Source: Ophelia neglecta (taxonomy: Eukaryota). From it: 64,000 nt of DNA. The stretch spans positions 139,252,001 to 139,316,000 of the forward strand of contig OZ260661.1 in the NCBI GenBank assembly GCA_965285935.1, in the 5' to 3' direction. The notes beneath the pieces are model-generated. The model saw only the letters and a list, made by a program, of their open reading frames with translations, did not search any database and had not been told where the DNA came from. Within the stretch, counting starts at the first letter, position 1, and each line of letters opens with the position of its first letter. The position numbers were made by a program, and so were the translations under genes. This document shows, one piece after another, positions 18,800 to 64,000 of the stretch.

Positions 18800-22318
<3,519 letters not shown>

Positions 22319-30970: not shown

Positions 30971-31188
30971 CTGGAGGAATCACGTTTACACGTCAACACA
31001 GTTATTTATTAGGGCATTCCTATTTTATTCAAAATTAAGAAACGTCCTGATAATCTAATAAATATGTATGTGGTATAAGAGTTTGGAAAAGAAGTGGTTG
31101 GCCATTTTGGTAAGGATGTGGGTTAGATGACTCCTCATTCACTTCTACGGGACACATCAATAAATACTCCAGTGACACCTTCATACAT

Positions 31189-31552
31189 AGTAGAGACTGC
31201 TAATACAGCAGTTTCACCTACAGACAGGGCGGGCACCTCGTCCGAGATGCCGAGTACATCAAACCAACTAAGTCAAACAATTAAAACAAAACTACAACCG
31301 CTAAGAAACCAAACACCAACAACAACAAAACCAAAAAGTAAACCAAAGACACCACGCACAAACAGATCACAAAAGGGGGATGACAAAGTCTCCCTTTATA
31401 ACCGCTATGGTGCACTGTCTGGGAGTGAGGAGGAGATGGAGTGTAATGATCCCCCGTCTCGACCTCACCCCCCTGACACAGACCAAACAACACCAAAAAT
31501 TAATATAAAAATTAATCGAAACACTCCCTCTAACAAAGAAAATGGCAAATAA
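31189..31552 (+). CDS. C-terminal fragment of LINE ORF1
   Basis: S/T/P/K-rich tail with the SLYNRYGAL (NRF..L-type) motif, overlapping the ORF2 start. Confidence 0.65.
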
Positions 31553-34500
31553 ATCAATTCTCCAATGGAACATAAATAGTTTCGAATCAAATAGGCCTGA
31601 GCTAGAAACTCTAATGGACAGGAACCCCACAATCATATGTCTCCAAAAGACCAAAGCTAAAAATAATATTAAACTAAAATATTACACAAGCTACAACACT
31701 TTTTCTAAAGCTGTTGATGGCAGAGCTTGTGGTGGGGTTTCTGTCTTGGTACATAACCGAACAGCTCAGAGCAAAGTAACCCTGAACACAAACATGCAGG
31801 CGGTTGCAGTCAGGGTTACACTACATAAAACAATCACTATTTGTTCCATTTATTGCCCCCCTTCAAAACCATTAAACATAGACGATCTACAGTCTCTCCT
31901 GGACCAACTCCCAAGTCCTGTCGTTCTCCTCGGCGACTTTAATGCTCACAACCCTCTGTGGGGAGGAGACACGACAGACGACAAGGGAAGACGTCTAGAG
32001 GACTTCATACACACAAATAACTTGTGTACTTTAAACTCAGGTGCTCCTACCTTCCTGCACCCGGGAAACGGGGCACAGACATCAATAGATTTATCTCTCT
32101 GTGACCCCTCCCTCTTCCTGGACTTCAATTGGACCGTTCAGCCTGACCTCTGTGGCAGTGACCATTTCCCGGTGTGGTTGACCACAAACCACCCAGGGCC
32201 AAAAGAAGGGGTCCCGCAATGGAAACTGCGCAGAGCGGATTGGACTAAATTCACGACCCTCTGTGAAGAAAAAATTGTTCCAGAGACGTTCCAACGGGCT
32301 GAGGATCCGATGGATGCATTCACCACCATTGTCCATGACATTGCTGCTGAGTGCGTCCCGCGGTCCAGTGGTACACCAAAAAAACGATCCAAACCATGGT
32401 TTAACGAAGAATGCAGAGCAGCTATAAAAGAGAGACAAAAGGCCCTAAGACGTTTTAGACGTCATCCCATCCAGGCAAATTTGGACTCTTTTAAAATCCT
32501 TCGAGCCAAAGCTCGTAAGGTGGTGAGACAGGCAAAGAAGAGCAGCTGTCACAACTACGTGTCCCAGCTGAACCATCACTCTTCTTTGAAAAAGACCTGG
32601 GACGTAGTTCGGAAAATCAGTGGCAAAGGAGTGAGTCAAACAATAATCCACCTCACACACAATAACTCAACAATCACCGACACTATAGACATAGCAAACT
32701 GCCTCGGAGAGAGTTTCGCCCGAAACTCCTCTTCCCAAAATTATACCCACTCCTTTCAACAACATAAAAGAATACAAGAAAAAATCCCACTCAACTTCCA
32801 CACCAAACAAGACATGCCTTACAATAGATCAATAACAGTCCGTGAACTTCAGAGCTCCTTATCTAAAACCCACGATTCGGCCCCTGGTCCGGATCAAATC
32901 CACTACCAATTCCTCAAACATCTCCCCCCTAGTTCCCTCCAAATCCTCACGGACATATTCAACTTTATCTGGGAAACCGAAACATTCCCACCTTCGTGGA
33001 AAAAAGCAATAGTTATACCTATACCAAAACCAGGAAAAGATGCCACTGAAAGTACCAACTACCGTCCCATAGCTCTCACCAGCTGTCTCTGCAAGACCAT
33101 GGAGAGGATCATCAACGACAGACTTGTCTGGTTCCTCGAAACCAACAAGCTGTTAACGGTGTACCAATCTGGGTTCAGGAGGGGCAGGAGCACCATAGAT
33201 CATCTAGTTCGTCTCGAAACCTCTATAAGACAAGCCTTTGTAAGGGGCGAGCACTACGTTGCCATTTTCTTCGATATGGAGAAGGCATATGACACCACAT
33301 GGAAACATGGGATCATGAAAGATCTCAATGATTTCGGTCTCCGAGGCCTTCTCCCAAATTTTATCAAATATTTCTTAGACGACCGGTCATTCCAGGTTAG
33401 AATGGGGGCTACTCTATCTAACCCTTTTATCCAAGAAGCTGGCGTCCCACAGGGAGCCATACTGTCTGTCACTCTATTTACCATTAAAATAAACAGTATT
33501 GTTAAATGCGTGACAAGAAATACTGATCCCTCTTTATATGTGGATGACTTCCAGACAGGCTACAGATCACAGTGCATGCGCACGATAGAACGGCAACTGC
33601 AACTCTGTCTCAACAAATTACAAAAATGGTCGAACGAAAATGGTTTCAAGTTTTCCCCGTCAAAGACAGTCTGCGTTCACTTCTGCAGGAAGAAGAAACT
33701 CCATCCAGATCCAGAGTTAACCCTCAATGGATCTCCTGTTCCTGTAGTTGAAACATTTAAATTCCTTGGACTGCTCTATGACAAAAAACTCAACTTTCTC
33801 CCCCATATCAAATACTTGAGACAGAGTTGCCAAAAGGCGTTGAACCTCCTTCGTGTCGTGTCTAGCATGGACTGGGGTGCTGATCGCAAGGTTCTGTTAC
33901 ATCTATACCAGAGCCTTGTTAGATCAAAGCTTGATTATGGCTGTTTTATTTATGGATCTTCACCAAAGAGCTACATAAAGATGCTAAATCCTGTACAGAA
34001 CCAGGCCCTCCGTATATGCACTGGCGCATATCGAACATCTCCAAAGGACAGCCTGGAGGTGGAGGCATGCGTGCCTCCTCTTCACCTAAGAAGAGAGAGA
34101 CAAGGACTGCAATATGCAGTCAAGCTACACGCTGACCCTGCCAACCCTGCCTTCTCGAGTGTCTTTGACCCTCCGGACAGTGAACTATTTGCTACCAAAA
34201 ACACAATTCCTCCATTTGGTATCCGCATCAAGCAGTCCCTAGATAATCTGGGCGTTGAACTCAGATGGATTGCTGATGCCACACTGCCGAAGACACCACC
34301 ATGGACATATAAGCCACTGGTGGTGGACTGGTTTTTGGTCACTGGTAATAAAAACTACACTTCACCACTGATATATTGTACACGGCTCAATCAAATCCGG
34401 TCAGAAGTGTACCATGACCATACCTTTATCTTCACGGATGGGTCGAAGCTCGAGGAGAAAGTGGCGGCCATGCCTTCACCTCCAGGATGCGCCTCCCCGA

Positions 34501-35209
34501 TCACAGCTCCATTTTCACTGCCGAAATAACAGCCATAGATCTTGCTCTAGACCATATCATCCAGTCTAGAGACAGAAAATTTGTTATCGCGTCAGACTCA
34601 ATGTCGTCCCTCCAGGCACTAGAAAGGTTTAGCTGGTCTAACCCTTTGGTTCTCTCCCGGCGAGAAACCTTAAATAAAATCCTCAAAAGAGGAAAAACTG
34701 TTGTACTCCTGTGGGTGCCCAGCCACGTGGGCATCAAAGGCAATGAGGCTGCCGACAAATATGCAAAAGAGGCACTGGAAGATCCCATCTTTCCAATCAA
34801 AATCCCATCTTCTGACTTCAAGAGCCCAATAAACCAGTATGGCTGGAAACAATGGCAAACCGCCTGGGATCAGGCCATAGAAAACAAACTGCACTCTATC
34901 TGCCCCACCATACCGAAATCATTTCGACAGCCTCTTGCCTCCCGGAGGGACGACTTGATCATATCTCGACTGCGCATCGGCCACTCACATTATACACATA
35001 CTCACTTACTGAGAAAAGAAGACCCACCTTTTTGTGAGGGCTGCCAATGCCAGATAACCATCCAACACATTCTGTTGGAATGCAGCGATTTCGCCGAGGC
35101 CAGATACCATTTTTATAACGTTAACAACCTCAAAACCTTATTTGACAAGGTCTGCCCACGGCAGATTCTTGGTTTCTTGAGGTCTATAGATCTCTACTAC
35201 AAAATGTAG
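31542..35209 (+). pseudogene. LINE ORF2 (AP endonuclease, reverse transcriptase, RNase H, zinc knuckle), frameshifted at ~34470
   Basis: QWNI, GDFNAH and SDHFP (APE); YRPIALTS, DMEKAYD, GVPQG and YVDD (RT); FTDGSK then, in another frame, SIFTAE, SDSMS, WVPSHVGIKGNEAAD (RNase H); C..C...TIQHILLEC. Confidence 0.92.
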
Positions 35210-35790: not shown

Positions 35791-36406
35791 GGATGGTCAA
35801 CAGATCACCTTGTTTGACTTATCATTTATTATATCCTTTGATGAAATTATAATTTATATCGAAGCACATATAATTCTAGTTCAACAAACTAATATAACGT
35901 ACTGTATTAGATTTGAAATCTTAAAAAGAAATAGTAATGCCTTAGTTAAGTAATAACAGTATGGTATTGAGGCCACAAGGACACTGCGTATTTCAGGCCA
36001 TAAAGCCTCAATACTTTACTACTATTGCTTATAGACAACACTCGACCAACTAATGACAGGGAAATACTAGTGCATTCTGCTAGATAATCATGACTCAAAC
36101 CTGGCTAAATATATAACGCTCACTCGCTGACAAGCTAGGGTTAGTTTTAACTTAAGCGCGTCGAATGGTTTGAGTACCCTTCGTATCTGCGATTGAGAAA
36201 GTGTCACTATAATGTCGCAAGGTCTTGCAAAACAATATACAAACATGTTTCCTGACTTCAAGTTTTTTTTTCTTCAAGTTCATTTGTGCATCTATACTGT
36301 CTTTGCGAGTGTCCTTGTGGCCAGGTTTAAGTTTAACCTTTGCAACTGCCATCCAGTAAATTAAAAATTAAAAAGTAAACGTAAAAGACATATTCGTGGG
36401 ACTCAC

Positions 36407-39400
36407 CTCTGACTTTGAATCATCGAACTTTTTCTCGGCTTCATTCAGTTTACCCTCCAGTTCCCTGGATCGTTTATCTCTTTTTTGCAACTAAGAAAGC
36501 ACCAATAGCAGTGGCAAAAATAATTATTCAGGTTTACATTAGTCATGTTTACATCGGGAGTCGATGCCCATGCTCATGTTTACAATGGGAGTCGATATTA
36601 CTAACAACAAAGTAAACGAGATCAGTGACATAAATGTAGCCCCTTGATAGGTCAACACTGACTTTGTTGACCTCTCGCCTATTGGCAAATGGTATTAAAC
36701 TCATTCTCCAAGCTTTCCCCAGCATTAAGATCGCGTTCCAGATCTTGCTTTAGTTCATACACTATAGTTTCACGTCCATCTAGCTAGCTGTCAGGAAAAA
36801 GTACCTTTCTCAGAACGTTGCTAGTGTAAATTTTGATCAAAATTTGATTGAAATACTGTCGATGACATCATGATGGCAAATGCATGACACAAAAACCCCA
36901 TTTTATAAAAAGGATAATAATAAAGAAGTTATCAATAAAAAAAACCACCTGAAAGATTTAAACAGAATGGTAAAATAAAGGTTTAGCTTCTTAATGGGAA
37001 AGCACCCCCACACGCAGGTATTACCTCATTGCGGCATGGTTTGCTATGAAGTGTTTTGTCTGGCTGTATCATTTCACTCTTGACACATCTAATAAACATG
37101 ATATTATTTCTATTACACCACCATAGCAGCAGGTTTAGGGATCAGACAAAAAACCCGTCTCAAATCTGTCTCAAAACTTATGAACTCTTAACAACTCTAG
37201 ATAACATATGAATGATAGTCTCATGATTAATAGAGACATACTCAGTTAATTCACCGCTCTGTCATGCTCAGTGTTTATATCTATTAAGCAACTGTCTAAC
37301 TACTTGCTTAGCACATTTTTTGGTACAATAATTCATATCGTGTTTAAAAAGTAATGTCATAAACTTAATTCATTAAATCATGCAAGAAGTCTCCATTTAC
37401 ACTGATACTAACTTGAATCCCATACACATGTGTTAACAGTATGTTACCAACCTCATCTCGCAACTGGTGCTTTTCCTCTTGATGGTGCCCTAAGTCATCT
37501 TCTAACTGTCTGATTTTCTTCTCAAACTGATTAAGCAATTAACAGGTGGAATGAATAAGTTAATTCCTTTGATAATGAATATATATCTAAATTAAATATG
37601 TTGATCAAGATGGCAAAAGCATGACTTTGCAGAAACACACAATTTTTCCAAACGGATAATAATGAAGAAGTAATTAATAAAAAAAACCACCTGAAAAGCT
37701 TTAACAGGATCAAAAGATAAAGGGTGTAGCTTCTTAATGGAAAAACTCCGCCATACGCAGGTATTAACTTATTACCTCATTACGGTTTGATTTGCTATGA
37801 CATGTTTTGTCTGGCTGTATCAATGCACTATTGACACATCTAATTAACATAATTTTATTTCTAATACTCCGCCATATCACTAGGTTTAGGCATCAGACAA
37901 AAGCTGTCTAATAAATCGTGTAATATAAACAATGTGTCTTAAATTACATATGTAAAAGATTAATTTTTCTCCCTTAATCACTTCGTAGTTAAGTTCATAT
38001 AACTGTTCATCACATCTTATTTCCCAGAATCAGCCTCAACTTTTATCATAGTATAGGAGTTACTAACCCGGAGCTGGACATCCTTCTGCTCCTCCCTCAG
38101 CTGTTTGACTACTTCTTCTCGACGGTTGAAAGTAGCCAGAGCCTGTCCTTGTTTCTCTTCCAGGTCTATGACGGTAGACTTCAGTTTAAATATGGTATGT
38201 TCACGCTCCGCTACCTTCGTGGTCTGGGCTTCCCGATTCTCCTCGGAGGAGGTCTGCAGTTTTTGGAAACTTGATGACAACTTTTGTACCTGTGCATCGT
38301 ATATAGATAAACGTATGTTATTTTTATACATCTATGTTCAATAACATATTCAGCAAGGACATTTGTACACTTATAATAATGAGTCAATCCTTTATTTGTA
38401 AAACTGTCTAAAGTATTTTTGAACTACCGGTTGTCTGTACAGTCATTGGTTGATTCAATAAGTGACAAGTGAACAGATCTGTGGCTAACAAGAACATTAA
38501 AATACACAGCCCAACCAGAGACTGTACAGCTCACACACACAAAATTTCCGAGCTAGCACATTTATTTCCTTGTCATAAATAAACATATCTGCAAACAGTG
38601 TAGTTAAGTTGTAGTGTTATAATATACTGTGTTTGTTTTTATCAACTCCATCGGATTATGACAAGGGAAGAAAAGACATGCTCTCAGCAAAATACATGTA
38701 CATCTGATGAGAAAATGATTTACAACGTTGTGATGTTAAAGAATATCGTAGAAACCTCAGTTGGGGAGGATATTATGATGCAAAGGAGTACAAGAGCTAG
38801 TGTTTCCCGTAAACCGACCATTCAAAGGATATGCACTAAATCATAATCAAAGTTGCTTCAAAAAATTATTGTCAGTTTGGGGAGGTATACTATATATGTG
38901 TAAAACACAGGATTAGATAATCAACAAAATATAACACTTATTGCACAGACTTTGAAGACATAGTCGTGGGACTCACCTCTGACTTTGAGTCATTGAACTT
39001 TCTCTCAGCTTCATTCACTTTACTCTCCAGTTCCTTGGATCGTTCATCTCTTTCTCGCAACTAAAATAGCATCAAATAGCACTGATATATATAATTATTT
39101 AAGCTTGCATTAGTCAAGCTTAACGTTTGTATTTGATATTACTAACAACAAAGTGAAAGAGATCAGTGATCAGTCCCTTGATTGGTCAACACTGAATTTG
39201 TTGACCTCTCGCCTCTTGGCGAACGGTATTGTTCCTATCCTCCCAGCTTTCTACCAAATTACGATCGCGATTTTGCTATTGCTTTATTTCCTATGATATG
39301 GTCTCAATCATCCAGTTATTTGTCAGGAAAATATTTATTTCTTAGAAGTTTACATGTGTAAATATTGTTCAAATACAGATTGAAAACAGTCGCTCACGTT

Positions 39401-40193
39401 ATCTTGATGAGAAATCTGCAAACAAAGGTTTATCATGGGATTTGCGAGAAAGTAGTTTTGACCTCAATACATCATTGCAAAGTGTGTAGATCAATATAGA
39501 ATGGGCTCAAATTGAATATACCAATTATACAGTAATATTTGATATGTGGTTTTTGTAACCGCTGCTTTCATATTTTAATTGGCCCATGAAGCCGCAAAGT
39601 ATATCATGAGGCCGGGGCAAGCTAGTGGGGGACAAATTAGGGCTGCCACTCAGGGTAACGTGGCGTCAACTCATAGTAACTTCCTTGGACGATCAGAACT
39701 TAGAGAGTTAACGTATATTTAACAACTCTCTGAATGCAAACATAAAAAAAACACCTTGTCTTATCGCCCGACAGGTGAACTTGGTGTTGCAGACTTACTT
39801 AATGGAAAAACAATCGTCAATGATTAATTTACATGCAGCCAATTGCATGGTTTTGTGAAAAACCAAACATACTTTAAGAACTTTTCATGCATCACTTTTG
39901 AGATATCAATTGCTTGTCTTCAAATGTTCTTACCAAAATGTAATTGTTTGCTAATTATAATTTACTGGATTCATATGCCAAGTAAATATATGGCCACTAC
40001 TCACATCCTCATTAGCTTTCCTCCGGACGCTGATCAGTTCAATCTTGGACTGAGCGAGACCTTCTTGAAGACACTTGATTGTCTCTGACTGAAGTTGTAC
40101 CTCCACAAGCGTAGCCTGATGGGGCTGACTTGCTTGACGCAGAATGTCTACTTCAGTATCCTGTCTCTGGATTGTGTCATTACGTTCTGCAAT
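36407..40193 (-). CDS. Coiled-coil exon array, distal part; exons 40193-40005, 39060-38977, 38289-38068, 37526-37452, 36490-36407
   Basis: Paralogs of the proximal exon types. All are open, phase 0-0, with canonical splice sites. Confidence 0.72.
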
Positions 40194-41050: not shown

Positions 41051-41297
41051 CATGACTTCCAGTTGTTTTTTAAGTTCAATTGAACACTTTTACTGTCTCT
41101 GCGGGCGTCTGAAGGGTACATTTCAGGAAGTATACGTCCAATTGACACTAGGTTTGGCACAAAATAACCCATCAGGCACTCGACGATGTGGCAACATTGA
41201 AACCAAATTGAATATCGACGTTGAAGCAGCGTTGGATTTGAGTAAAACGATTTCACGAATAAATTAATAACGGTTAGATGGTGACTTTTACAGTTAC

Positions 41298-44200
41298 CCG
41301 CTGGAGTGGTTTCTTGGTGTAGAAAAGGATATAAGATTCTGACGAAGTCATTCTTAAAAAATCCGCGTCCATGATCTGTGTTTTCTACGTAAAAAAAGGG
41401 GGAGTTTTACAAACGAACGGTGTAATTTTGGTTTCAAAAATTGAGAAGAAAACATTATTACATTTGTGTCATTATCGATTCAGTAATTACATGACCCACG
41501 GTTTACGATATTCGCCAATAAATAGTATTATAATTACTGTGATGGATAGAATTCCAGTTCATTAATAAATTACTAACCATCGAGTCATTGTATTTGACCC
41601 ATCCTTCTTCAACAGCGATAAAGCTCATGTAGTGGCCTTCCTCGAGCGTATCACCAGTGTGAGTTATCACCGCAGATATGTTGTAATCTGAACTATCACT
41701 CTTAAAATCAAGTATACAAAGACCATGAGAGACACTAATAAACAATATCGTCCACATACAAAGAAGGCAGACTGTGAAAATTATGTCTAATTATATATAT
41801 ATAAACGAATGATACTTACAGTCGAGAAATCGTGGGAAACTACATTATCTGGTATTGATAATTGATAGGGAAATGCATAGTCTTTGGAGTTTTTCTCCAA
41901 GTTCCCATTAAACCTAAAAAAAGTGTCTCCAACGTTGGGTTAACAAATACTTGGCACGTCACACAAATAATAATGCTGCTTCTTATTAATTTGGATAGAA
42001 AGGCACAATAATATTTATGCGAGGCGTTTTTTTCTGAAAATAATTCAAATAGAAAAAGTTTCTCGCTACGAAGACTCTCAAAGCAAATAAACAAACAATT
42101 AAATGTTATATAAATGTTATGCAATAAAGGTTAACCAATCAACCTATCACTCCGAAGCAGATGCCCTGTTGTTTGACGTGACTAAAAATTTGAACACGAG
42201 TTGCCGATAAATGCGTCATACATAACGTGGCGTGAAATGGTTCATTCCTACCTATTGAGCGACAGACAGAGTATTTCTGGCACATGGGTAAAAAACACTG
42301 ATCTTTCAGCTTGTCCACTCTCATTACAGCTACAATATAACAAAACAAATGTAAGGGTTTGATTAATTTTTACGAAGGAACAACTTCGAGAGCATTGCTT
42401 TGCCGTGCTGATTTTAAGAATTACCTCTCACAACGGTACGAGATTAATTCAGCTTCGCAATTGTTCTTTAATGATTCTTCTAGGTTTCCACAGTTCTGAA
42501 AGTTAAATCCAGATAATCAATAGGTATTTTGATATATCACATCATTTCACAGGGAAATAACTACAGAGAAGTTGGATCTGGGGAAATTTTACCTCAATTC
42601 CAATTGGCAATATCAAAAATGGTTGTGGAGAGTGTGAATCTGTGTTGCAACGAGAACACTTCACTGCAATGGCAAAGGTTACGCAACATACAACATAGAA
42701 GAATAGAAGAATTTCCACAAATTCGAAATATTCAATATTTGAAGAATCGTGTTATGTTTGACATCTTTGATTACAATGACGATGAAATTAAATTCAATAC
42801 GCTCTAGGGAAGCGTGAGTCAAATTATGGAAATTAATTACCACAATACGTCATTGATCCGGCGAATAGTTCTTTTAGTCTATTTGCAGAATGACTGAAAA
42901 AAGATTGTGCTGTATTTTACAAATACGTTGTTGACTGACGGGAAGTTTTGACAGCGGCTCTAATAAAATAATATTCCATTGCGATACTCTTGCGGAGAGA
43001 TAATCCTTGCCACAGTCAACAATTCCCGTATAGAAAAGAATAACTTTTACAAACGTTACTGTCGCTGACTTTGGTGGTTCCCACTTTTTTATATATTGGT
43101 TGTATTATAACAAGCCCCTATCATGCGCAAAATAAAGCAGATCTAATGCACAGACTATAGTGTAGGAATATAGTATAATAATATATAAACAAATATAATA
43201 TCAGCGCAATATAAAAATGTGACACAATGGTATATGTATATATTGAACACTACCACAGCTGAAATTCTGTCACAAGAAGCATCACAAATTAAGCCAATTT
43301 TAAGTTAACGAGATATATAACGCCTTTTGTGTTGACAAGTATGGGGCGAAACACTGAAGTAGTGAACTTGTAATATAAAATATGTATTTACTTAGACAAA
43401 TTTGAAAACATAAAGAATGTAGTGTAAATGGTTTTACTTTATTTATCCTATATCGCATTGATGAAGCAAACTCATAAGACGTAAAGAAAACGCGAATTAT
43501 GCAGATTTCAATGCACAAGGATAATTATTTTAGGATTTTTTTTTTATTAATCGCACATGTACATTAGACAGCTCGCACGAAATAAGATTGCACGAATATT
43601 CATATCGATATATTGGTCTAGCGCAGTGCGTAGTTCTTACTCTAACGCAATGACAATAAGTTAATGAGCTTTCTTGGACCATTTCTCAAGTGCACTGCTC
43701 AAATGGGAAATTTTACAAGGATTCTGAGTAGGTTCTTGATACTAATTCGTAGGACACATTGTGGAGATTTATTGAGGATAGTTGTTTAGTATTATTTAAC
43801 TCTTATCTTTCTTTGATCACACTGGTTGTCTCTGGCTGAGATAGCCGCAGAGCGATGGCAATCAAGACGGGGTTAAAACAGATAAATCTTGGCCATCTCG
43901 TTCAGAATCGCAAATACCTCGCTATCGGCTTGGTATTTTCTTTTTCCGAATGGTTCGAAGCCATGAGTTCTGTATATAAATTGCATCACCGCGAAGCAGT
44001 ATCAGCTATGGCTTACACATAGCTTTAGAAAGTGTAAATTATGGCGAAGACTTGATGGTTTTGGGCGTATTTTTGGCTTTCTTCTAAACTATAGATTATG
44101 CATAAGTTACATGAAGGGAGAATGCGTTTCAACTTTATGATATTAGTCATAATCTTAGCACACTCAAGAGGACCCAACTGAAGACTGTGCCAACAATGTT

Positions 44201-45004
44201 GTTACATTAATACAGTATACAGCATCAAATTGCCAGTATATGGCAACCCCCCCCCCCCCCCCCGTCCCTTGCGATACCCTAGGCCTTGTGGCCTCATCTT
44301 TTATATTTATTCTTAAATGTATCAGATAAATAAACTAACTTGGTAACAACACTGCAGCTACTGCGTGTGGTTGCCTCTATTTTTTATTACTTATTGCTAC
44401 CACCATGAGCATGAAGTAATGCAATTCCATCGATATCACACTTGCATACTAATCACCCAATTCAAATGACTTATTGTAAAAACTTATGTAAAAGACGACG
44501 AAATGCAACTCGAAATGAAGCAGAAAGGATGGGGTAGTAGTTTGGAAAAAGGGTCAAACGATGTTTGGTCAATGCGTTTAATTATAGCAAAAAGAAATAT
44601 TATACAGATATTGCTAAAGAAGCAACGTGCAATTATATTGACCAGAATCGAGTCGTAGTCTGCGAGAGCTTTATCTTGAGGAAACTATCATTTACTGAAA
44701 TGCACTGAAGGCACAGGTGAAAAACAATCGCCAGTTTCTTTTTTCCTTTTAATTAGTATTTCGTCTTTAGATATTTTATTGCCTTTCCTTTATTAAAATT
44801 AGTGTCCTCGAAATAGAAATTCGTAGCTTGGTAATAATAATTCATTCCTTTGAAAAATTATTCCGTATCTTCGAAATAATAATGCACTCCTTTGTGTTAT
44901 GCTATGTCATAAATTGAATACTTCTAATGGCCTGCCTTCTGAGTTGGTTGGTGTGTTAACATGTGCAGCACACAGAGAGGTAACCATATTAACATAGTAA
45001 CATA

Positions 45005-45070
<66 letters not shown>

Positions 45071-47497
45071 GCGTATCTGCGTATACAACTTACCATTCAG
45101 TAGGAAGAGACTGCAATAGAAGAAGGGCATATTCAGCTGCATCCTGCTGGGAGCCAATCTCGAAATTACCAGCCAGCTCTGAAGAAAAAAAATTTAAGGC
45201 CTTACTGACAATCTCCCTTTGACAGCGCTCAAGCAGTATTCACATTGCAGCAAGATCATTGTGCATTCAAATGAAATGTCCCAAGCAAAGTGCGGTTTTG
45301 AACCTTTCAGAGAAAATGTCATCATATAATCAGTATTTTATAACGAAACGAGTATCATTCATTGGTTGACTACTTTGTGGTAGTGTAAACCAAATGATAT
45401 TAATAAAACAAAAGCTGCATGGGGTACACCGATAAAATATTCCAGGTATGGATGAATCATTTATATCTTATCAGATCTTTGCGATCAAAATAATACAATA
45501 CTAAAACTTTAACCGTTTAGAGACTCTGTTAGTTCTGTTGGCGTTATAGGAGATCCCACACGTTCTTGAAAAAACCGTCTGGCCACAAGTGCCAACTTGC
45601 CACAAAACAGACATTCTGTGTTGAAGCCTACCATTAATAAAACAACAAAATGATTTCATGAAGTTATACTCGTTCTCAGTATGCCATGCATTATAAAAGG
45701 AGCAATGGAAATGTTACTAAGTTATAGATAACTATTATACAACTCAATTATAGATTTTATGCTATATATAATTACAATAAATGCTTATATCATAAAAGTA
45801 ATGTTTCATACATGGATCCCTGGACGTCAAGAAATGCTCTTTTGCCGGCTGCGTGTTCAGAAAACACTGGGCAACCGCGTTCAAATAACAAGTATTCCCG
45901 ACATTCTTGAGACCAGTACTAACTATGAAAAAAAGGATTCCATTGAGAATTGACACTTAAGCAAACAACATATGTTTTTCTTTATTTCCTATTTTTGTTT
46001 TCTATTACATGTCCTTGCAAAATTGACATTTGATAGGCCTGGTGATAAAGCGTATGACTACTGACGGAGCATGTGCATGTTATCATGTGGTTAAGAAAAA
46101 ACGCCTGAAAATGGTACATTGTACCTCAGATTTTCCCAGCATACATTAATGTTTAAAGTCAATGTGAAATTTAGATGACCACACAAAATTATGTTATGTG
46201 TTTTAAGTGGGTATTAATATAAATCGTGTATAAACGAGTGTGAATAAAAATATCGTTCATCCTTGGATTGATTTTTGAGTTTAAGGTGTATTTTGTTTGA
46301 TTCCAGATGTCCACAAGAATAACTCAGTTGGTCAAAAAAAGACAACACAAATCTTGGTATTTAAAATTATTCAAATTAGTAAAAAAAAATCAATGAAGTT
46401 ACATCGACATCGGATTTTAAACTATACATATTATAAATTTAAGCATGGTTTTAAGTATCTTTTTAATCAGGAAGCCTAACCAAATAGTATTATATACGTT
46501 TCCGGCGCAATCATGGCCGCTTATAGCCCATATGTAGCTCTCGGTTCAACAATCACTCTAACACTTTAGAGAACTGTCCTTGCACTTGACTAAGTCTAGG
46601 AAAGAATGTCAGCCCATCATACATTCACGCATATTCTAAGGTCATGCATATCATATGATCAATTACATGTATGCACACGAAGGTGGTGAGTGCCCAATAC
46701 CATCATCTACTGTGTAGTTTACCATGTTATTACAAGTATTGACTTGATGGATTAAAGACCCCCCCCCCTCTCTCTCTCTCTCTCCCAATTGTCTTTTGAA
46801 GTTTTGCTCAAGAGGACCATCCAGACTATACTAGTCTATTATTACCGTATGACTATTTCCGAAGCACTGATGTTGTTGAACAAAACTTTGATAAAACGAG
46901 TGTTCCGTGCAATTATAAGATCTTAGGTCGTTCTCCCTGCTATAAAGCATAGCACAGTAAATAAGGTACATCGTATTATTCAATGTACTATCTTACCGCT
47001 GTTGACATAGATTTAAATTGTTTAAACTGTGTGGATCGGCTGTTCGTGTACTCGTGCATTGATTGTTTGCTTAATACACATATTGATATTACATTCGTCG
47101 ATAGCTCAAACTTGTGACAGAGTTAATTAAGGAACAAGGCGCGGGTTGCTTTGCAGCGGAGGGAGGGTTGGGTGGGGCGGGGGGAGTTGTGGTGGTGGGT
47201 GGCAAACAAGACTCACACTATTTGTTGCTTTCTTCGATATAATAAAGGGTGCCATGTCTAAATAAACTTTGTCGTAGGAATCAATTCCATGTGTGTAACG
47301 TTTGCCTCTGCTTCATACTGAGAAGTTCACACTCACATGGTATATTTTCTTACGACAAGGTTTTTTCAGACATGGTACCCTTTGTTAATGTTAAAGAAAC
47401 ATACCGACTGTGTGATTGATGTCCCCCCCCACACCACCACCACCACCAAAATTGCAAACCTCGCCTAGTTCGTTAATTTATTGTGTCCTAAATATTT

Positions 47498-47568
<71 letters not shown>

Positions 47569-47595
47569 CTCTCTCGGTTACTTACCTGCGATCAT
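41298..47595 (-). CDS. Ubiquitin-specific protease (peptidase C19) catalytic domain; exons 47595-47586 (tentative), 45922-45812, 45627-45514, 45178-45094, 42878-42841, 42663-42593, 42495-42425, 42329-42252, 41913-41820, 41700-41578, 41384-41298
   Basis: Motifs in canonical order: GLKNVGNTCYLNAVAQC (Cys box), C...ECLFC, FEIGSQQDAAEY, LFAG...VKCSRC, NLEESL...YRCESC, VPEILCLSLNRF, YAFP, SAVITHTG....GHY and WVKYND (His/Asp box), SYILFY. Splice phases match throughout. The 45094/42878 junction forms TGA. Confidence 0.85.
45007..45068. repeat. (AT)n microsatellite
   Basis: Perfect TA dinucleotide run. Confidence 0.97.
47499..47565. repeat. Compound (CT)n(AT)n microsatellite
   Basis: Seen directly. 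Confidence 0.95.
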
Positions 47596-50500
47596 GCTAT
47601 ACAGTTGAATTCCAAGAGACTAAAATGTGGCTTGGTTACTAAGGAAAAAATATGTTTGAGGGGCGTCCTGCTTTTGCGACAGGTTTGGAGTCAATGTTTG
47701 TTGTGCTGATTATCTCTAATAACTTGCCCTGACCCGTACCAGATGTCAAAGCGGCTGGCCTATCATAGCCGATAAACCTAGATAACCAATCCGTATCGAG
47801 CTTGGGCTGATGTCGGGAATTCCCCTTTTTTTCGCAAACACTACAATATGTATCGGAATATCACATGACCTTTAGGGTTAGGGACAGGTTTGATAGGTCT
47901 AGTGATCTGTTCTAATTTCAGGATTTACCTCCGCAAGGCTCCGCGCCTCCGCTTTTAATCAAAAGCCCCGACACAACTGGTTTTTCTTTGTTATTTTTCC
48001 GAGATATTTCCCAAGGGAAATTTCCAATCCTTACTCCATGGTTGGAGATGTAGAAGACACTTTTTTATATACGTCTTTAGACTTAAAACCCGTCAATAGT
48101 TCAATTTTCGCTATTGTTGGTGATGAAATAACGTCTGGCTTACCAATCTCAAATATAAATGATTTCTCTACCTACATAAATCAACCTTACCTGAATAGCA
48201 GTTTCTCACAGAAACTAAACATTTTGATCCTCAAAGTAGTTTGTAATATGCAGACCACAGGAGGAATGGGGATGTGCGTCTGAAAACGGATCAGACGGCT
48301 TTGAGAAGTTGGTGGTGGATAAAACAGGGTGGACTGTGGGTTTGGGTGTGGGTCAAGGTGGAGGAGACTCCAAAATGAGATGGGATGATTAATAACAGTG
48401 AACTATATGAGCCGCGTGCACACTGCTTATTGGGTTCAGACACAGCTTTAAGAGAATGCTTTTTAATTCGCCACTATGCCGCAGACTGTTTGATAAACAG
48501 ATAACCATATGCTGATGTAAAACTTAATCATAATATTCAGTGCTTGCCTTAACTTCATCTTGAACATAGTTACACAATATGATATAAAGATGATAAAATT
48601 ACATTTTTTAACACAGATAAAATGATAACATACTGCTTGTGACAATTGCTAGATTATTCTAAAAGCTTTCATGCAGTTTAAGTTGATCACACGTTGACAT
48701 AATAGAGTACTTTATTCCTTGGTAAGAATTTCATATCAATATAATTGTAAGGGAATTTGATAGGCTTTTCATGTTATTGTTATAGTCAAATTGGTCGAAA
48801 ACAAAAATATAAGAATGCATTTCCTTACTTATATAATCAAATTCATGCGAACAAGGTTTTAAGCATAAGTGGAAAGTACGTCAATTTGAAAACATGTAGC
48901 CCGTTCTAAGATAATTATGACTGATGACGATTTATATCAAACACTTGGTGACTATGCAGTGTTACAAAACAACTAGACTGTCTACTATAAGGGGACATCT
49001 AATTATGACTTATGATGATTTATGTGCAGTGTTACAATCAACTAGACTCACTATAAAGTGACAAATCTATACAACGTACAAATAAATATGTTTTTGACAG
49101 GTACATTATACATCGTAGTGGTGTATTTATCGTTTTCGAGATGTTTATCTATCACAATGGTTTGTTTACTATTAGCCTGCTATCCGTGTGCCCGCAAGAG
49201 CCTGTCGTTCGCAAGTGAGGTATCTAGCTAATTTATTGCCGTCTGCTGGTATTAGACTTATTGCCGTCAGATGTCGTCTTACTCGCCGTTCTAGTTAGGC
49301 CAAACGTAGGCCTCATTCTGTGAGTGGTACATTTATGTAGAGTCTAGCTATCACTTGGTTCGTCTGACTACACTGCTGCCCTCAGCCGAATAATCTGGAC
49401 ACTAATATGGACTACTAAAAGTTGGTACTTGGATCTAAGTTATGTCCCCGCTATTTATTTACCTGCCGTCGAGTGTATTATCCAATCCACTTGTGTTTCT
49501 AACTTTTATTTAATACAATCCGTAATACAGACCTACCTAAACCTCACGACTTGGAATCAGCTGTGCGTGCGTGTGTGTATGTGAACGTTCTCAAACGTAA
49601 TCCTGATGTTTATCTAGTGTTTTTTATTTCTGTTTCTGTCTCTTGTGTTCCGAATATCTTTACTTTTAGGTTATATCAAACGTGTATTTTGTGCTATAAA
49701 ACCGTTCTTCTTATATATATCCACGTCAGCTTAATTTGGGTCGAATTTTGGTAGGTTAAGTTCTAATGTTTTATTCCTTATTCTATAAATTCGATACTCT
49801 CCTATTTTGGTTTATTCTGGTTACTCCTGCAGCCCGCCACTCCCGACCCGCCGCGCGCCCCAGACTCACCAGGGGGATACAGGCTGTGAACGAAAGCAAA
49901 TCTGACGAGTGGGACTAATAATTCTACGGTCTTGTCCACTGGTCGAATAATCTAAAATGTCTTCTAAATTTTTGTCGCAGTCATCTTCCAGTGCTAAGTT
50001 TCCTTCGTTTTTGTATTTTTCTATTATATTAGCAATTTCCATATTCATTTCGGTGGGTGACCTTTAAATTTCTGGCAAGGCCGACGTCAAAGTTTTTCTT
50101 GTAGCTCTCACTATTCAATTTATTTTTCGGTCAATTAACTGTTAAATCATAATCATGTCTTTTTAATATCTTTAAGCATGTATTTGTGTTTTGCATGTGC
50201 ATATCGTAAGACGATTAACACGTTTGTTGGGCTAAATTGTATATACGCATATTAAACATTAATTACGAATTATCCAATCTAAAAGTCGTGAAATAAGTTT
50301 GGATCATTTTCCTGAACGCAATCCTTTTTACCAAGCAGCCTTGTCCTACAATTTGAGCCTTTATTACAATGATTATAATTGCTCCATACACTCCCTCAAG
50401 TTATTCACTAAAATGCTATTATTAAACCTTTTATTAATGTAATCATTTTAACTTTGTATCCAGCAGGCAATTTGTGTTACTATTATTACTGCACCATTGC

Positions 50501-53500: not shown

Positions 53501-54014
53501 GTGAATTCTACATAGAAATAATGATGGACATCGTTTTGTATAAAAATAGCAGAAAAAATAGCATGTAAACTACATGTTCATGCCTCTTCAGTCATATTAA
53601 CATTTTTCATGCCGTAAGGATTGTCAATTATATTGCCTTAAGTCAGGTCTATACTCTACAATAACATAGTGACCCTGACCAATGAAGGATGCAGTGAGCT
53701 TTTTATTGAAAGCTGCTTTCATGCCCTATATGTGATCAACATCATTTATGACCGCCAAACTCGTTTAAATGTTTTTGCGGTCCAGAGTTCCTAATCGCAC
53801 GCTCGAATTTTCTAAAAATATAGCCCTTATAGGTCGAAAAAGCCTTTAGGTAAAATATTGCTTTATATTATTACTAATCATTATCCAAACACGCCGAGCT
53901 CCGTCTCCATGATTATTTGTTGGGTGTTAACTAATCTATGACCCTCGGTTCAAGGTTACATGGAAAGTAGTTAAATAGGCACATAATCTATAATCTGAGT
54001 ATATTGTCTATGGT

Positions 54015-57094
<3,080 letters not shown>

Positions 57095-57881
57095 CTGTGA
57101 ATCGAGAAAATATTGATTGTTGTTAGTGTTGGGAGACATAAAAGGCGAGATGTCAATAGTAACATTTTATTATTACACGGTGATTTACAAAGTTTTAGTG
57201 AAACAAAAGACCTCTTCAATTATATTTGATAGATGCAGAACAAAATAACACCTAATTCAATCTTAACTATTGTTAGTGCGAAAACCCTTTTTATCTGGCA
57301 AAAAGTAATGCCAGCAGAAGATTATCCAAATGAAGATATTTTGAAAAAAAGATCTACTGGCCGTGATTATTTTTTGAAATAATAGCAAGCTTATCAACAT
57401 AAGGGCTTAAATAATGATAATATTCCGACCTTGAAAATGCAAACCGAGTTCATATCTGAGAACTCGATCGGATGCAAAAGTTTGGTTTTCTATAGGTTCC
57501 CATTTCAGTCTAGGATCAAGCAGCTTAAAATAACGGCTGTTTACATCATTTTGATAATGTGCTCATGAAAATAGACACCAAGGTCAAATGTCAGCAATCG
57601 ATCTTATGCGAAAAAAGTAGTTCTGGGCCCTGGCTGCCAAAAAAGGTGGAATTCATCGATTTAGGATTTTGACAAAAAAATCGACGTCAAATATGAAAAC
57701 TCGAAAAAATGATTCCCAAAGAGAAGGTAATATTATTATTAATGTATAACATATTTGTTGTACATTAATGATTTGGCTGATATCGGCGGGAAACATGTGT
57801 TCTTTTTGCGGATGAGGTCGCTACCCCACCGTTATGGAAGTAAACCCATATTCCATTATATTTACTCCGAAAAATTCTTAC

Positions 57882-60800
57882 ATTTTCACAACAATGTGTG
57901 TATTGCTTCAGGGATTCACCTTGGTCGTTTCTTAACTGTCTGATCACGTCATCTTGCTGAGCAATCTGCCAAGAAAGTTTACAATAAAAAAGCGAGGTAT
58001 TTCAGTCAATTTTTGTAAGGTTGTTACAAAAAATGTAGATATAACAAGTCATCTGGAAGTTTTCAAAATTGATGTCATACACATTTAAAATAACATCACA
58101 CACCTGATGTCACATACTCGTCAATTGACATCACGTACCTGGTGTCAGATACTTATATAAGGCTATGTATCAAGCAGGGCTTTTTCTACTTATGAAAAAG
58201 TTGCCTAATCTCCCTGCCTTTCTTATGTGTTATTTTATAATGTAAGGAACATCGATGTGAAACACAGGATTAGATAATCAAAGAAAATACATCACTCATT
58301 GCAGACTTTTAGGATATTGTCGTGCGACTCACCTCTGACTTTGAGTCATCGAACTTTCTCTCGGCTTCCTCCAGTTTACTCTCTAGTTCCCCGGATCGTT
58401 CATCTCTTTTTTGCAACTAGAAATGCAACAAAATAGCAGTGGTAAAAGTAATTGTCAGCACGTACTGTCTCCGTTTAAGCAGAACTTGCAGTTGTGAGAA
58501 GGAGACGATTTAGTTAGGTGCTACCCAAAAGAAAAGCCACGTGCAAATCAGTCTGCGTACAGTCACTGGTTGATTCAATAATTAAAGCAGATATACACAG
58601 ACGCAGCCTAACCAGAGACTGTACACCTCATACACACACAATTCCCGAGCTTGCGCATGTTTATCCTTGTCATAAAGGAACTTATCTGCAAACACGGTAG
58701 TTAGGTTGTAGATTTATAATGTACTGTGTTGATATTTTTATTAACTCCATCGGATTAAGGCAGGAACAGACATGCTCTCAGCAAAATACATGTACATGTT
58801 ATGAGGAAATGCTTAACAACGTTGGATGGTAAAGAACATCGTAGAAATCTCGGTTGGGGGAGAATATAAAGATGGAATGTAGTACAAGTGCTAAAGTTTA
58901 CCGTAAACCAACCATGTAAAGGACATGCACTAAATCATATTCAAAAGTTGCTTCAAAAAGGTTATTGTGCGTGTGGGGAGATATACTATATATGTGTAAA
59001 ACATAGGATTAGATAAAAAAAAAATATAACACTCATTGCACAAACTTAAGACATATTCGTGGGACTCACCTCTGACTTTGAGCCATCGAATTTTCTCTCG
59101 GCTTCTCTCAGTTCTCTCTCCAATTCCCTGGATCGTTTATCTCTTTTTTGCAACTAAAAATCACCAAAATATCAGTGGTAAAAAGTAAATATTTTAGCTT
59201 ACATTAGTCAAGCTTCACTTTGGAAGTCATGTTTTACTTTGGGAGTCGATATTATTGAAAACAAAGTAAACAAGATCAGTGACATCAATGTAGTCCTTTC
59301 AGTGGTCAACACAGACTTTGTTCACCTCTCGCCTCTTGACGAAGGGTATTAAACTCATCATCCCATCCTTCCCCAGCATTAAGATCGTGTTCCTTCCCTT
59401 GCTTTAGCTCATACACTATAGTTTCAATTCCATCTAGCCACTTGTCAGGAAAAAATTCTCTCAGAACGTTGCAAGTGTCAATCTTGATCAAATTCATATT
59501 GAAATACTGTCAGGATGGCAAAAAAATGACTATACACAAACACCCAATTTTACAAAAAGGATAATAATGAAGAAGTTATCAATAAAAAAAACATCCGAAA
59601 AGTTTTAACAGAATGGTAAAATAAAGGGTATAGCTTCTGAATGGGAAAGCTCCCCCATACGCAGTTATTACCTCATTACTGCATGACTTGCTATGACGTG
59701 TTTTGTCTGGCTGTATCATTTCACTCTTGGCTCATCTAATAAGAGGCCAAACAAAAAAACTGTCTAAAAGCTGTCTCAAAACCCATGAACTATAAACAAT
59801 TTGTTCTACATAACTTATGAAGGATAGTGTCATGATTAATAGAGACATTATCAGTTAATTCACCGCTGTGGCATGCTCACTGTTTATATCTATTAAGCAA
59901 CTGTCTAACAACTTGCTTAGCACATTTTTTGGTACAATAATTCATATCGTGCATAAAAAGTAATGTCATAAACTGAATTCATTAAATCATGCAACAAGTC
60001 CCCATTTACACTGATACTAACTTGAATCCCATATACGTGTGTTAACAGTATGTTACCAACCTCATCTCGCAACTGGTGCTTTTCCTCTTGATGGTGCCCT
60101 AAGTCATATTCTAACTGTCTGATTTTCTTCTCAAACTGATTGAGCAATCAACAGGTTGAATACATTAGTTAATTCATTTGATAATGAATATATCTACATT
60201 AAATATTTTATGCTGCAACCTTAGGTTGGCACTGGTGGTTAAAATGGTAAAACTGGCATTGTAAAGTACATTTAATCAAATAATATTATCAGATCCCTAG
60301 TTCATTACATTAAGTAGGTATGGAAATAATATTATCAGATCCCTAGTACATTACATTAAGTAGGTATGGATACGTGAACTAATCATTTAACAAGTTTTAG
60401 GATTTCCAGTTAACCAACATTGAAAAGGACAGTCACAAAATCATATTCAAAAGTTGCTTCAAAAAGACAATTGTTTGTGAGGGGAGGTATACAATATATA
60501 TGTAAAACACAGGAATTAGATAATCAAAGAAAATACAGCACTCATTGCACATACTTTGAATACATTGACGTGGGACTCACCTCTGACTTTGAGTCATCGA
60601 ACTTTTTCTCGGCTTCATTCAGTTTACTCTCCAGTTCCTTGGTTTGTTCATCTCTTTTTTGGAACTGAAAAATGCACCAAAATAGCAGTGATATAAGTTA
60701 TTATTTACGTCTGCTTTAGTCATCCTTAACTTTGGGACCCTTGATTGGTAAACACTGACTTATTTGACCTCTCGCTTCTTGGCGAACGGTATTGAACTTA

Positions 60801-63800
60801 AACTCCCAGTTTTCCACCAAATTACGATTGTGTTCCAGCTTTTGCTTCAGTTCCTACAATATAGTTTTCCCTCTATCCAGCAAGTTGCCAGGGAAAAAAT
60901 TGTTTCTAAGAAGGTTGCATATGTAAATACAGATTGACATACAGTCGGTCCCGACATCTTTATGAAAAATCTGTAAACCAAGGGTACATTAATGAAGCCA
61001 GGTGTTTCAGTTAATTTTGAATGGTTGTAGAATAAATAGATAACAATAAGCCATCTGGAAGAATGGTAATAGTCTTTCCCGGCAAACCTGAGGTCGTACA
61101 ACTGTAGAGTGACATTACACACCTGATATCACATACTTGTACTGTGAAGCTATTTATCTAGCAGGGATTTTCTACTTGTAAAAAGTGACAAATTCCTCTG
61201 CTTTGGCTTTGTGTTAACGGCGAAAGCGAACGCTTCGGCTAAAGCGGCATGGCCTCTTAAATTGAACTAATATGAACACAATAATAACCCTACCCTTTCC
61301 CATTTATATCAAAAACAAAATTGAGATGTCTGGGTTAGGGTTGGGTTATAAAATAACTGATATTTTAGATTATTGTGTCACCAATGCTGCTTTCGTCGAA
61401 GCTTTCGCTTTTGCCGTTAACACAAAGCCATCTACTTTATATAATAATAAGAGGAATATTGTATCCCATCATAGTTCCACATAATATAGTGCTATCATGC
61501 TTATCCATCTCATCTGACAATTTTTGAACCAAGAACTTGACTTTTCCCACTTAGTGCTTCCCCAAGAATACGCGATGTTGCTATATCCTTTCTCATGCTG
61601 CAATATATTGCCAGCATTAGTCGGGAAGATGATTGAATGTTTTGACTTATTGGCAGGTGGCCAGTTGTGTCCCGTTTGCGAATCTTATTCTAACTGAACT
61701 GCAGATTTCCATGTCGAATCGCGTCTCCCTCTCTCTCTTTCTGAACATCACTACGTTTGCATGATCTCAACTATTGTCTTTTTATCCTGGGATTTTGCGA
61801 TGAAGTAGTTTAGAACTCAATAGATAATTACAATGTATGTAGATCAATAGTAGAATGGGCTCAAGTTGACTTTTATACCAATTAACCATGAGACGCCAAG
61901 GGTTTAGATGCTTTGAATATTAACTAGCGATTCGCCACCCAATAATTGCTTACGGTTTTTCTAGTAATATTTTTCATTAGTTTTCTGACACATTAACAAC
62001 GTTGCCCTAGAGTGGTGTTTTGTATCACCCAGGGGCTGACCCTGCCACAGCTTTTTATCATAGTGTAGGAGTTACTAACCCGGAGCTGGACATCCTTCTG
62101 CTCCTCCCATAGCTGTTTGACTACTTCTTGTCGATGGTTGATAGTGGCCTGAGCCTGCCCGTGTTTCTCTTCCAGCTCTTTGACAGTAGACTCCAGTTTA
62201 ACTATGGTATCTTCACGCCGTGCTACCTTAGTGGTCAGGGCCTCCCGATTCTCCTCGGAGGAGGTGTGCAGTTTCTGGAAACTTGATGACAGCTTTTGTA
62301 CCTATGCATCGTATATAGATAAACGTATGATGTTCTATTTATACATCTATAGCCAATAACATATTCAGCAAGAACATTTGTACACTAGAATAAAAAATAA
62401 GGCATATAATAATGAGTCAATTCTTTTTTTGTAAAACTGTCTAAAGTAATTTTGAACTACCGGTTGTCTGTACAGTCACTGGTTCATTCAATAAATGACT
62501 AATGAGAAGAACTGTGCCTAAAAAGAACAATATACAGAGACTGTACACCTCACACACACAAAATTCCAGAGTTAGCAAATGTATTTCCTTGTCATAAATA
62601 AGCATATCTGCTAACAGTGTAGTTATGTTGTAGTGTAATAATGTGCTGTGTTTGTTTTATCAACTCCCATCGAATTATGACAAGGCAGGAACAGACATGC
62701 TCTCAGCAAAATACATGTACATCTTATGAGAAAATGATTTACAACGTTGCAATGTTAAAGAAAATCGTAAAAACTTCGGTTGGGGAGAATATTACGATGC
62801 AAAGTAGTACAAGAGCTAGTGTTTCCCGTAAACCAACCATGTAAAGGACATGCACTAAATCCTATTCAAAGTTTTTTCAAAAAGTTAATTGTCAGTGTAG
62901 GGAGGTATACTATATATATGTGAAACGCAGGATTAGATAATCAAACAAAATATAACACTCATTGCACAGACTTAAGACATATTCGTGGGACTCACCTCTG
63001 ACTTTGAGTCCTCGAATTTTCTCTCGGCTTCTCTCAGTTCTCTCTCCAGTTCCCTGGATCGTTCATCTCTTTTTTGCAACTAAAAAGCACCAATAGCAGT
63101 GGTAAAAGTAATTATTTAAGCTTGCATTAGTCAAGCTTAACTTTTGGATTTGATTATTTACAACAAAGTAAAAGAGATCAGTGAAATAAATGAAGCTCAA
63201 TTCAAAAAATCATTACAATGAGAGTAGATCAATAAGAGAATGGGCTCAAGTTGACGAATATACCAATTATACAGTAATATTTGGTATGTGGTTTTTATAA
63301 CCGGTGCTTTCATTTTATACTAAAGCTTGTGCCATGAAGCGGCAAAGTATGTCATGAGGCCGGGAAGCTGTTAGAAGGAGACGATTAATCAAGGTGCTAA
63401 CCAAAAGAAGAGCGATGTGCAGAACAGTCTGCGTACAGTCACAAATACATTAAATAACTCAGCCCAACCAGACACTGTACACCTCACACACACAAAATTG
63501 TGTAAATTTGTGTAAATTATGTAAATGTTATAAGGAAATGCATTACAATGTTGGGATGTTAAAGAATATTGTAGAAACCTTGGGTGGGGGAGAACATTAC
63601 GATGCAATATAGTACAAGTGCTAGTATTTCCCCTATTACAACCACGAAAAGGACATGCAGCAAATCATATTCAAATTTGCTTCTAAAATGTAATTGTCAG
63701 TGTTGGGAAGTATACTATGTATATGTAAAACACAAGATAAGATGACATAATCAAAGAAAATATAGCACTTATTGCAAAGACTTAAAAGACATAGTCGTGG

Positions 63801-63891
63801 GACTCACCTCTGACTTTGAGTCATCGAACTTTTTCTCGGCTTCATTCAGTTTACCCTCCAGTTCCCTGGATAGGTCACCTCTTTTTTGCAA
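57882..63891 (-). CDS. Coiled-coil exon array upstream of copy 3 (continues beyond the window); exons 63891-63808, 63079-62996, 62301-62080, 60664-60581, 60135-60061, 59153-59070, 58416-58333, 57965-57882
   Basis: Same exon types as the copy-2 array but in different order and number. All are open and phase 0-0. Confidence 0.72.
61205..61429. mobile_element. MITE, Mutator-like (225 bp)
   Basis: TIRs ggctttgtgttaacggcgaaagcgaacgcttcg / cgaagctttcgcttttgccgttaacacaaagcc. Imperfect 9-bp TSD ctctgcttt / atctacttt; the paralogous empty site near 29976 has a single atctgcttt. Confidence 0.8.
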
Positions 63892-64000
63892 CTAAAAAGC
63901 ACCAATAGCAGTGGTAAAAGTAATTATTTAGGTTTACATTAGTCATGTTTACATCGGGAGTCGATATTACTAACAACAAAGTAAACGAGATCAGTGACAT

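Follow-up and report, generated by a model that had tools for sequence, protein, structure and literature searches.

The question raised by this locus is whether a set of exons on its minus strand makes up a working gene and, if so, what that gene descends from and what its neighbours have to do with it. The exons lie in a 64,000 nt stretch of animal DNA from Ophelia neglecta (GCA_965285935.1, contig OZ260661.1, positions 139,252,001 to 139,316,000 of the forward strand; assembly size 762 Mb), the whole of which is called the window here. We suggest that they make up an intact gene of 11 exons, coding for a bare ubiquitin-specific protease (USP) domain. The gene would be a duplicate of USP36/42, old and fast-evolving, stripped of its tails; it now stands in four recent tandem copies within an array of Deltex ligase genes. 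On the strength of the sequence comparisons presented below we regard this reading as fairly probable.

Gene model and catalytic domain

The USP gene occupies 41274–47595 on the minus strand; all its introns are GT–AG, the phases agree, and the spliced product of 921 nt encodes 306 aa followed by a TAA stop. The exons, all on the minus strand, are as follows.

47586–47595, minus: exon 1, tentative start (MIA), 10 coding nt with a phase-1 donor
45812–45922, minus: exon 2, Cys box, with oxyanion Asn10 and catalytic Cys15 (45890–45888); UCH E 3e-8
45514–45627, minus: exon 3, Cys-rich segment (C41, C46, C49); no Pfam match when searched singly
45094–45178, minus: exon 4, QQDAAE box (D91, E94); UCH E 0.17, below the cut-off
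42841–42893, minus: exon 5, 53 nt
42593–42663, minus: exon 6, first finger CxxC (C127, C130); its 3' intron is absent from the host USP36/42 gene
42425–42495, minus: exon 7, through C170, from the splice-phase model
42252–42329, minus: exon 8, C173 to the NR/F motif, 78 nt, a length shared with USP36/42 and with the transposon USPs
41820–41913, minus: exon 9, from the splice-phase model
41578–41700, minus: exon 10, His box, with His252 (41634–41632), Asn267 and Asp268; UCH E 9.5e-9
41274–41384, minus: exon 11, with the YILFY box and the stop codon; 41298 is an alternative donor

The motifs named in the original prediction, which was made from the DNA letters without database searches, were all located on the minus strand within the region it had indicated: GNTCY (G at 45899), QQDA (45149), GHY (41637), YND (41592) and both CxxC pairs of the fingers, the first at 42658 and the second (C170/C173) divided by an intron. 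The Pfam UCH profile (PF00443, cut-off 23.9 bits), to which that prediction had looked for confirmation, recognizes two exons searched singly, those of the Cys box (34 bits, E 3e-8) and the His box (35.7 bits, E 9.5e-9), and gave zero matches with the six further exons tried. Against a USP profile built in this analysis from 31 other USP domains, the spliced product reaches 204 bits, over residues 6–294 and profile positions 1–294 of 295, with all boxes in order; the best of 200 shuffles of the product reached 6.7 bits. Asn10, Cys15, Asp91/Glu94, Cys127/130, Cys170/173, His252, Asn267 and Asp268 align with their counterparts in other USPs, as do Arg198–Phe199 and the final YILFY box (USP36, USP42, USP17, USP7-like and USP8-like rows). 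The distinguishing features of the USP family are present: N10 and C15 in the Cys box, H252, N267 and D268 in the His box, and C127/C130 with C170/C173 in the fingers. An Asn–Asp sequence is described as a common active pair after the USP His box (PMC10867860). We conclude that the gene is real and encodes a new and divergent USP, compact and with its catalytic residues in place as predicted, and that it is likely to be an intact gene for a bare catalytic domain, predicted from these residues to be an active deubiquitinase. The enzyme type itself is ordinary. Neither N- nor C-terminal tails were found in the gene model, and the protein is acidic (pI 5.0, versus 9.3 for the domain of the host USP36/42).

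The arrangement of ten domain exons and an MIA start exon in matching phases also stands, GT–AG introns included, except for the 38-nt exon, presumably exon 5. With a splice-site matrix trained on 142 modelled introns, the acceptor of exon 5 at 42893 scores 5.7 bits and that at 42878, which would give the 38-nt form, 1.2 bits; the shorter form is ruled out because its junction, TG/A, reads as an in-frame TGA stop, and exon 5 must therefore be 53 nt. No mini-exon that would rescue the 38-nt form was found in intron 4 at the thresholds applied. Both ends of the model remain tentative. The donor of the MIA exon is strong (10.4 bits) and the acceptors are weak (2.2–2.5 bits), and this start varies between the copies described below and is absent from one of them. 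Exon 11 is either 111 nt long, with the stop at 41274, or 87 nt, spliced at 41298 (donor 7.1 bits), and no exon following the latter donor was identified. A GC-rich candidate first exon near 47930–47960 was rejected, since it lies within a high-copy repeat unique to the window copy; this short repeat, at 47874–47968 and with a summed contig depth of tens of thousands, is inserted upstream of that copy only.

Micro-exons are very short exons, of about 50 nt or less. The description of the gene as a cryptic micro-exon gene has to be dropped: exons 2–11 span 53–123 nt, which is normal beside a median of 102 nt (quartiles 67–140) for 125 internal exons in 19 other USP models from the same genome, and the exons are those of USP36/42. 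A spliced aligner written for the analysis, given as query nothing but the USP36/42 or the USP12/46 protein of this genome, recovered the same ten exon regions, though some ends differ and spurious additional mini-exons appear. Contigs of three sequencing runs from one sample span the introns and contain no exon–exon joints; they are uninformative on expression.

Origin of the gene

Around the USP hits of this genome, which hold about 50 USP loci by count, 40 stretches were taken and 31 were modelled. One of these loci, L037, is the genome's USP36/42 gene (best PDB match USP36, E 2.5e-11; next match 1.4e-5); the labels of the other host loci are those we presume from their sequences. The window gene is not the USP36/42 orthologue, since L037, on another contig, holds that identity. 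The two genes share most of their domain introns: six of the nine domain introns of the window gene coincide with introns of L037 exactly, in profile column and phase, and two further L037 introns have the same phase and lie within 7 columns, in gap-rich regions, so that eight of nine match under loose scoring and all eight introns of L037 are accounted for. Among 22 other USP loci used as controls (eight transposon-type loci being tallied apart), exact matches numbered 2/146 and loose ones 23/146, with at most three per gene. Pairwise scores agree with the introns, in that five USP36/42/17 rows are the five best non-self matches (94–106 bits) and all others reach at most 78 bits. We therefore consider it likely, on intron positions as the main evidence and pairwise scores in support, that the gene is an old USP36/42 duplicate.

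Several observations weigh against this assignment. The intron controls are machine-made, noisy models, and the scoring profile contained both the USP protein and L037. Identity to USP36/42 is only 26%, which bears out the predicted divergence of the protein, and profiles of the different groups score it alike (144.7 versus 138–142 bits). The phylogeny for which the original prediction had called did not recover a clade with USP36/42/17: in a careful tree of 17 of the 33 rows (four transposon, two fish and ten host rows, the longest branches among them, having been left out) the window USP does not join that group, its branch measures 3.0 changes per column and supports are 52–59. By the approximately unbiased test two placements are not rejected, one as sister to the whole USP36/42/17 group (p 0.246) and one with USP8/4/32 (p 0.08); a placement as sister to only the host USP36/42 is rejected (p 0.02).

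The predicted link to the USP17/36/42 group is supported by the introns, mainly, and by pairwise scores, and not by the Cys-rich segment on which it had been based. In that family a segment with one His and three Cys follows the Cys box, as it does in the aligned rows; in the window USP the three Cys are kept and the His before the first of them is replaced by Asp. A comparable C..C-x2-C segment occurs in the USP22-like gene of this genome, so the feature is not diagnostic. This, together with the tree and the equal profile scores, could be taken to mean that an active USP arose from another parent (USP22, USP12/46 or USP2/8) and that its resemblance to USP36/42 is long-branch noise. Such an origin appears very improbable to us, given that the USP22-like and USP8-like genes have 0/7 exact intron matches each and that the USP12/46-like domain is intronless.

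Database searches were less telling. Single exons used as PDB queries could not tell the USP subfamilies apart, and the His exon gave no match in a word-based search of proteins; an exon of the conserved USP36/42 gene was likewise missed, which makes that search uninformative. HMMER with the His exon against 1.84 billion representatives returned 23 generic matches (33–51% identity), the best of which were tandem USP17/36/42-like proteins scoring through their repeats, and no close relative, the 41-aa query being a weak one. The ESM Atlas gave only unrelated bacterial matches, under 0.9, for exon 3. In the literature, searched by title and the start of the abstract, with subscription papers mostly outside the coverage and supplements excluded, neither an invertebrate USP36-derived family nor a USP in a Deltex array was met.

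Compared with USP36 and USP42 themselves, the window USP has a similar domain length, a Cys-rich segment after the Cys box, Asn–Asp after the His box and the eight introns that match L037 in place and phase, with the best pairwise scores; it differs in its low identity, its acidity, the tails not found, one additional intron and its presence in four copies in tandem. In the nucleolus, USP36 carries out the maturation of Fubi-S30 (PMC10611586). A closer likeness in organization is offered by mammalian DUB/USP17, which is cytokine-inducible, consists of a single ORF and is thought to derive from an inserted mRNA (PMC2874809): this family too is USP36/42-related, short and tandemly repeated, and a rodent USP17-like protein is 29% identical to the window USP. 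Membership of DUB/USP17 is nonetheless rejected, because the window USP has ten introns in place of the single-ORF structure; the retention of introns indicates that it arose by DNA duplication, independently of USP17. We infer that these invertebrate copies parallel the cytokine-inducible USP17/DUB array, and by analogy they may be controlled by induction.

Relation to transposon-borne USPs

Three families of USPs of about 250 aa, which share eight of the nine domain introns of the window gene, occur in dispersed, near-identical segments of this genome. One resides in a Ginger1-like element of about 17 kb (G000:C9:38245396-38262441; L027 and flanks) with inverted repeats of about 65 bp, a CCGG duplication and an intron-split integrase (Integrase_H2C2, E 6e-15), the USP domain lying downstream of the latter; a partial twin is at C5:115.786-115.801 Mb (L026). 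The two other families are L025 and L029-L033 (C5:3.40, C1:31.53, C1:146.30, C9:33.54 and C2:83.15 Mb), of which L031 adjoins the end of a Ginger-like element and some copies look decayed. A GC–AG intron was seen at L025:3352, at a position where USP36/42 and the window gene have GT–AG. Published Ginger1 elements measure 2.6–7 kb and carry OTU or Ulp1 proteases, USP not being listed for them (PMC2836005); the L027 element matches Ginger1 as described, yet is much longer and has an unlisted protease type.

These findings raise the possibility that the window gene is a domesticated protease, brought into the array by a Ginger-like DNA transposon. The shorter USPs have matching introns, one family sits in the element with terminal inverted repeats, CCGG duplication and integrase, and a phase-0 intron at column 161–162 is common to the window USP and the transposon USPs and absent from host USP36/42. 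Vertebrate USP42 probably has this intron too; if USP36/42 of other phyla does, the window gene would have diverged before its host counterpart lost the intron. We think this origin improbable all the same. The transposon USPs have one intron fewer, since a phase-2 intron that follows the QQDA exon in the window USP is missing from them, and are only 24% identical to the window USP; pairwise scores to them are 15–41 bits, compared with 94–106 to USP36/42/17, and a quick tree did not group the window USP with them. Moreover, no blastn or tblastx match of the 17-kb element was found in the 255 kb around the array, and no integrase was found near the USP among the inspected ORFs of at least 150 aa, a size at which intron-split integrases of other families might escape; an inverted-repeat scan was swamped by TA runs. 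Direct cargo status in a Ginger1 transposon is rejected, there being in the 255 kb and among the inspected ORFs no matching element or integrase of the kind that at least one short-USP family shows, behind an integrase and between inverted repeats. The window USP, as a probable duplicate of USP36/42, is from these comparisons best seen as a host relative of transposon cargo, not as the cargo itself.

Tandem copies and selection

Close matches to the His and Cys exons number exactly four in the genome, and all lie within C1:139.20-139.38 Mb. In each of the four copies (A, B, C, which is the window gene, and D) exons 2–11 are open and the splice sites intact. Copies A, C and D are about 99% alike; two further duplicates contain the first exon only. 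The four-copy array and the Deltex setting had both gone unmentioned in the original prediction. Part of copy B enters the window, its coding exons lying just beyond it.

2866–5768, minus: copy B upstream region and first intron

Between B and C there are 11 silent changes and 15 replacements (pS 0.056, pN 0.021, p 0.015); their introns are 4.0% divergent with 27 indels in 3.6 kb, and their exons have no indels.

The copies might instead be silent or decaying passengers, formerly functional, now unexpressed and multiplied only by duplication of the array. This would account for the two orphan first exons and the variable start exon (MNA in copy A), and copies A, C and D are too similar to reveal selection. 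The doubts that it casts on an intact gene are strengthened by copy D, which is without the start exon and disrupted by a Helitron within intron 4, and by the selection test being a single comparison of 26 changes. We nevertheless rate it as a poor prospect, since pN is below pS and exon indels are zero between B and C, and since no exon frameshift occurs among the differences listed in the contigs of the three runs. In addition, these are the sole copies in the genome and are very divergent, and every catalytic residue is kept, which implies constraint until recently. An intact gene remains our preferred reading, and the extra copies were probably carried along when the Deltex array was duplicated.

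Two insertions were noted in the copies. The Helitron in intron 4 of copy D is about 14 kb long (L015-L016, C1:139.361-139.375 Mb; Helitron_like_N, PIF1 and a weak OTU match), and a 292-aa protein kinase ORF (Pkinase, E 4e-34; L009:7520-8395, minus strand) lies in the first intron of copy B only. Elsewhere in the genome there is a USP expansion at C1:99.20-99.30 Mb, with about five tandem copies of one gene that we take to be USP4/15-like, and several His-box matches fall in C9:68-75.5 Mb.

The Deltex ligase array

Three genes or gene parts of macrodomain–RING–DTC type lie in the window.

53968–57166, minus: upstream neighbour, 3' exons of a DTX3L-type macrodomain–RING–DTC gene with its own stop
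18753–22417, minus: second macrodomain–RING–DTC copy, from domain matches
11594–13699, minus: third copy, likely a 5'-truncated duplicate, whose homology to the second ends at 13699

In such genes, which alternate with the USP copies, macrodomain, RING and DTC are encoded in one spliced chain. A Deltex–USP fusion was rejected, as the DTC exon has its own stop about 6 kb upstream of the USP. The best match of the DTC is DTX3L (E 5e-27), and the His of its IHHKT motif, H707 of DTX3L by PDB chain numbering, is kept. About 44 of some 53 DTC loci genome-wide, a lower bound, lie in C1:136.27-139.67 Mb. Those near the window join a macrodomain to RING–DTC, as if PARP9 and DTX3L were a single protein, the macrodomain having been checked for the seven DTC loci of a 255-kb stretch. 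Between the genes of the window, mutually similar repeats of 0.1–2.5 kb (75–90% alike) occupy 23300–30700, 36400–39600 and 58200–64000, and a LINE-type element at 31127–35209 on the plus strand has an endonuclease, a reverse transcriptase and an RNase H.

Each USP copy lies 6–13 kb downstream of a macrodomain–RING–DTC gene on the same strand. This raises the question whether the USP is a dedicated eraser, which would strip ubiquitin from the ADP-ribose esters or auto-ubiquitin of the adjacent ligases, selection keeping the linkage. The neighbours are DTX3L-type with the catalytic-motif His retained; human USP2 removes ubiquitin from Deltex-made ubiquitin–ADP-ribose in vitro, and a viral protease does likewise (PMC10810221); and dtx3l, parp9 and usp18 are ancestral interferon-stimulated genes of vertebrates (10.1101/693333). 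The PARP9:DTX3L pair with USP28 or USP2 similarly sets macrodomain and RING–DTC chemistry beside a deubiquitinase, although here macrodomain and RING–DTC are in one gene and DTC loci number dozens; the window USP is not of the USP25/28 type. By our hand estimate, the odds that one of about 50 USP loci falls by chance in the dense part of the array, 0.65 Mb long, are about 4%, rising to about 20% for the whole span. The USP copies cover only 0.2 Mb of that span of about 44 loci, which fits passive co-duplication, and co-duplication on the same strand accounts for the pattern without selection. A dedicated eraser is unlikely in our estimation, and regulation of the Deltex ligases by the USP, through action on Deltex-made ubiquitin–ADP-ribose, is a speculative hypothesis.

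Possible function and control

Upstream of the USP gene are two NF-kB-like sites.

48016–48025, no strand assigned: NF-kB-like palindrome, 420 nt 5' of the ATG and retained in 6/6 duplicated upstream segments
47815–47824, no strand assigned: second kB-like site, present in 2/6 upstream segments

All eight occurrences of the kB-like pattern in 255 kb fall within USP upstream duplicates. Against giving this much weight, the pattern was picked after the site had been seen and the copies are non-independent, so that the evidence is weak, and interferon-stimulated response element (ISRE) motifs show no enrichment in this setting.

If the enzyme works as other USPs do (PMC10867860), His252, oriented by Asn267/Asp268, would activate Cys15, which would attack the bond following ubiquitin Gly76; Asn10 would form the oxyanion hole and the zinc-ribbon fingers would hold ubiquitin. 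Because it has no targeting domain, it may be a broad-specificity enzyme, controlled via its expression (with the NF-kB-like site upstream) or via a partner. The role that we find most plausible, and put forward tentatively, is the damping of ubiquitin signalling in immune or stress responses. A wider picture seems to us unlikely: the region would be an invertebrate immune locus whose single-chain macrodomain–Deltex ligases recognize ADP-ribose and attach ubiquitin to it, with a co-amplified, NF-kB-driven minimal USP as their dedicated eraser, and Ginger transposons would have captured the same USP36/42 offshoot as a third type of protease cargo, in addition to OTU and Ulp1.

Implications

The gene adds to the family a lineage-restricted and divergent USP, for which the searches made returned no close relative, and provides a clear case in which intron positions expose a parent that the protein tree cannot. 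What makes it of interest is the array, together with the relatives in transposons, the functional link to the neighbours being hypothetical, and the DTX3L-type supercluster is possibly more notable than the USP itself. As a natural 34-kDa USP without insertions, the protein would be a handy model enzyme. Should it prove that the USP reverses Deltex-made ubiquitin–ADP-ribose in vivo, a physiological eraser would be named for a reaction that PMC10810221 describes in vitro only. Finally, the findings suggest that USP36/42 has spawned tail-less tandem paralogues more than once, through the USP17 retrocopy in mammals and here through DNA duplication.

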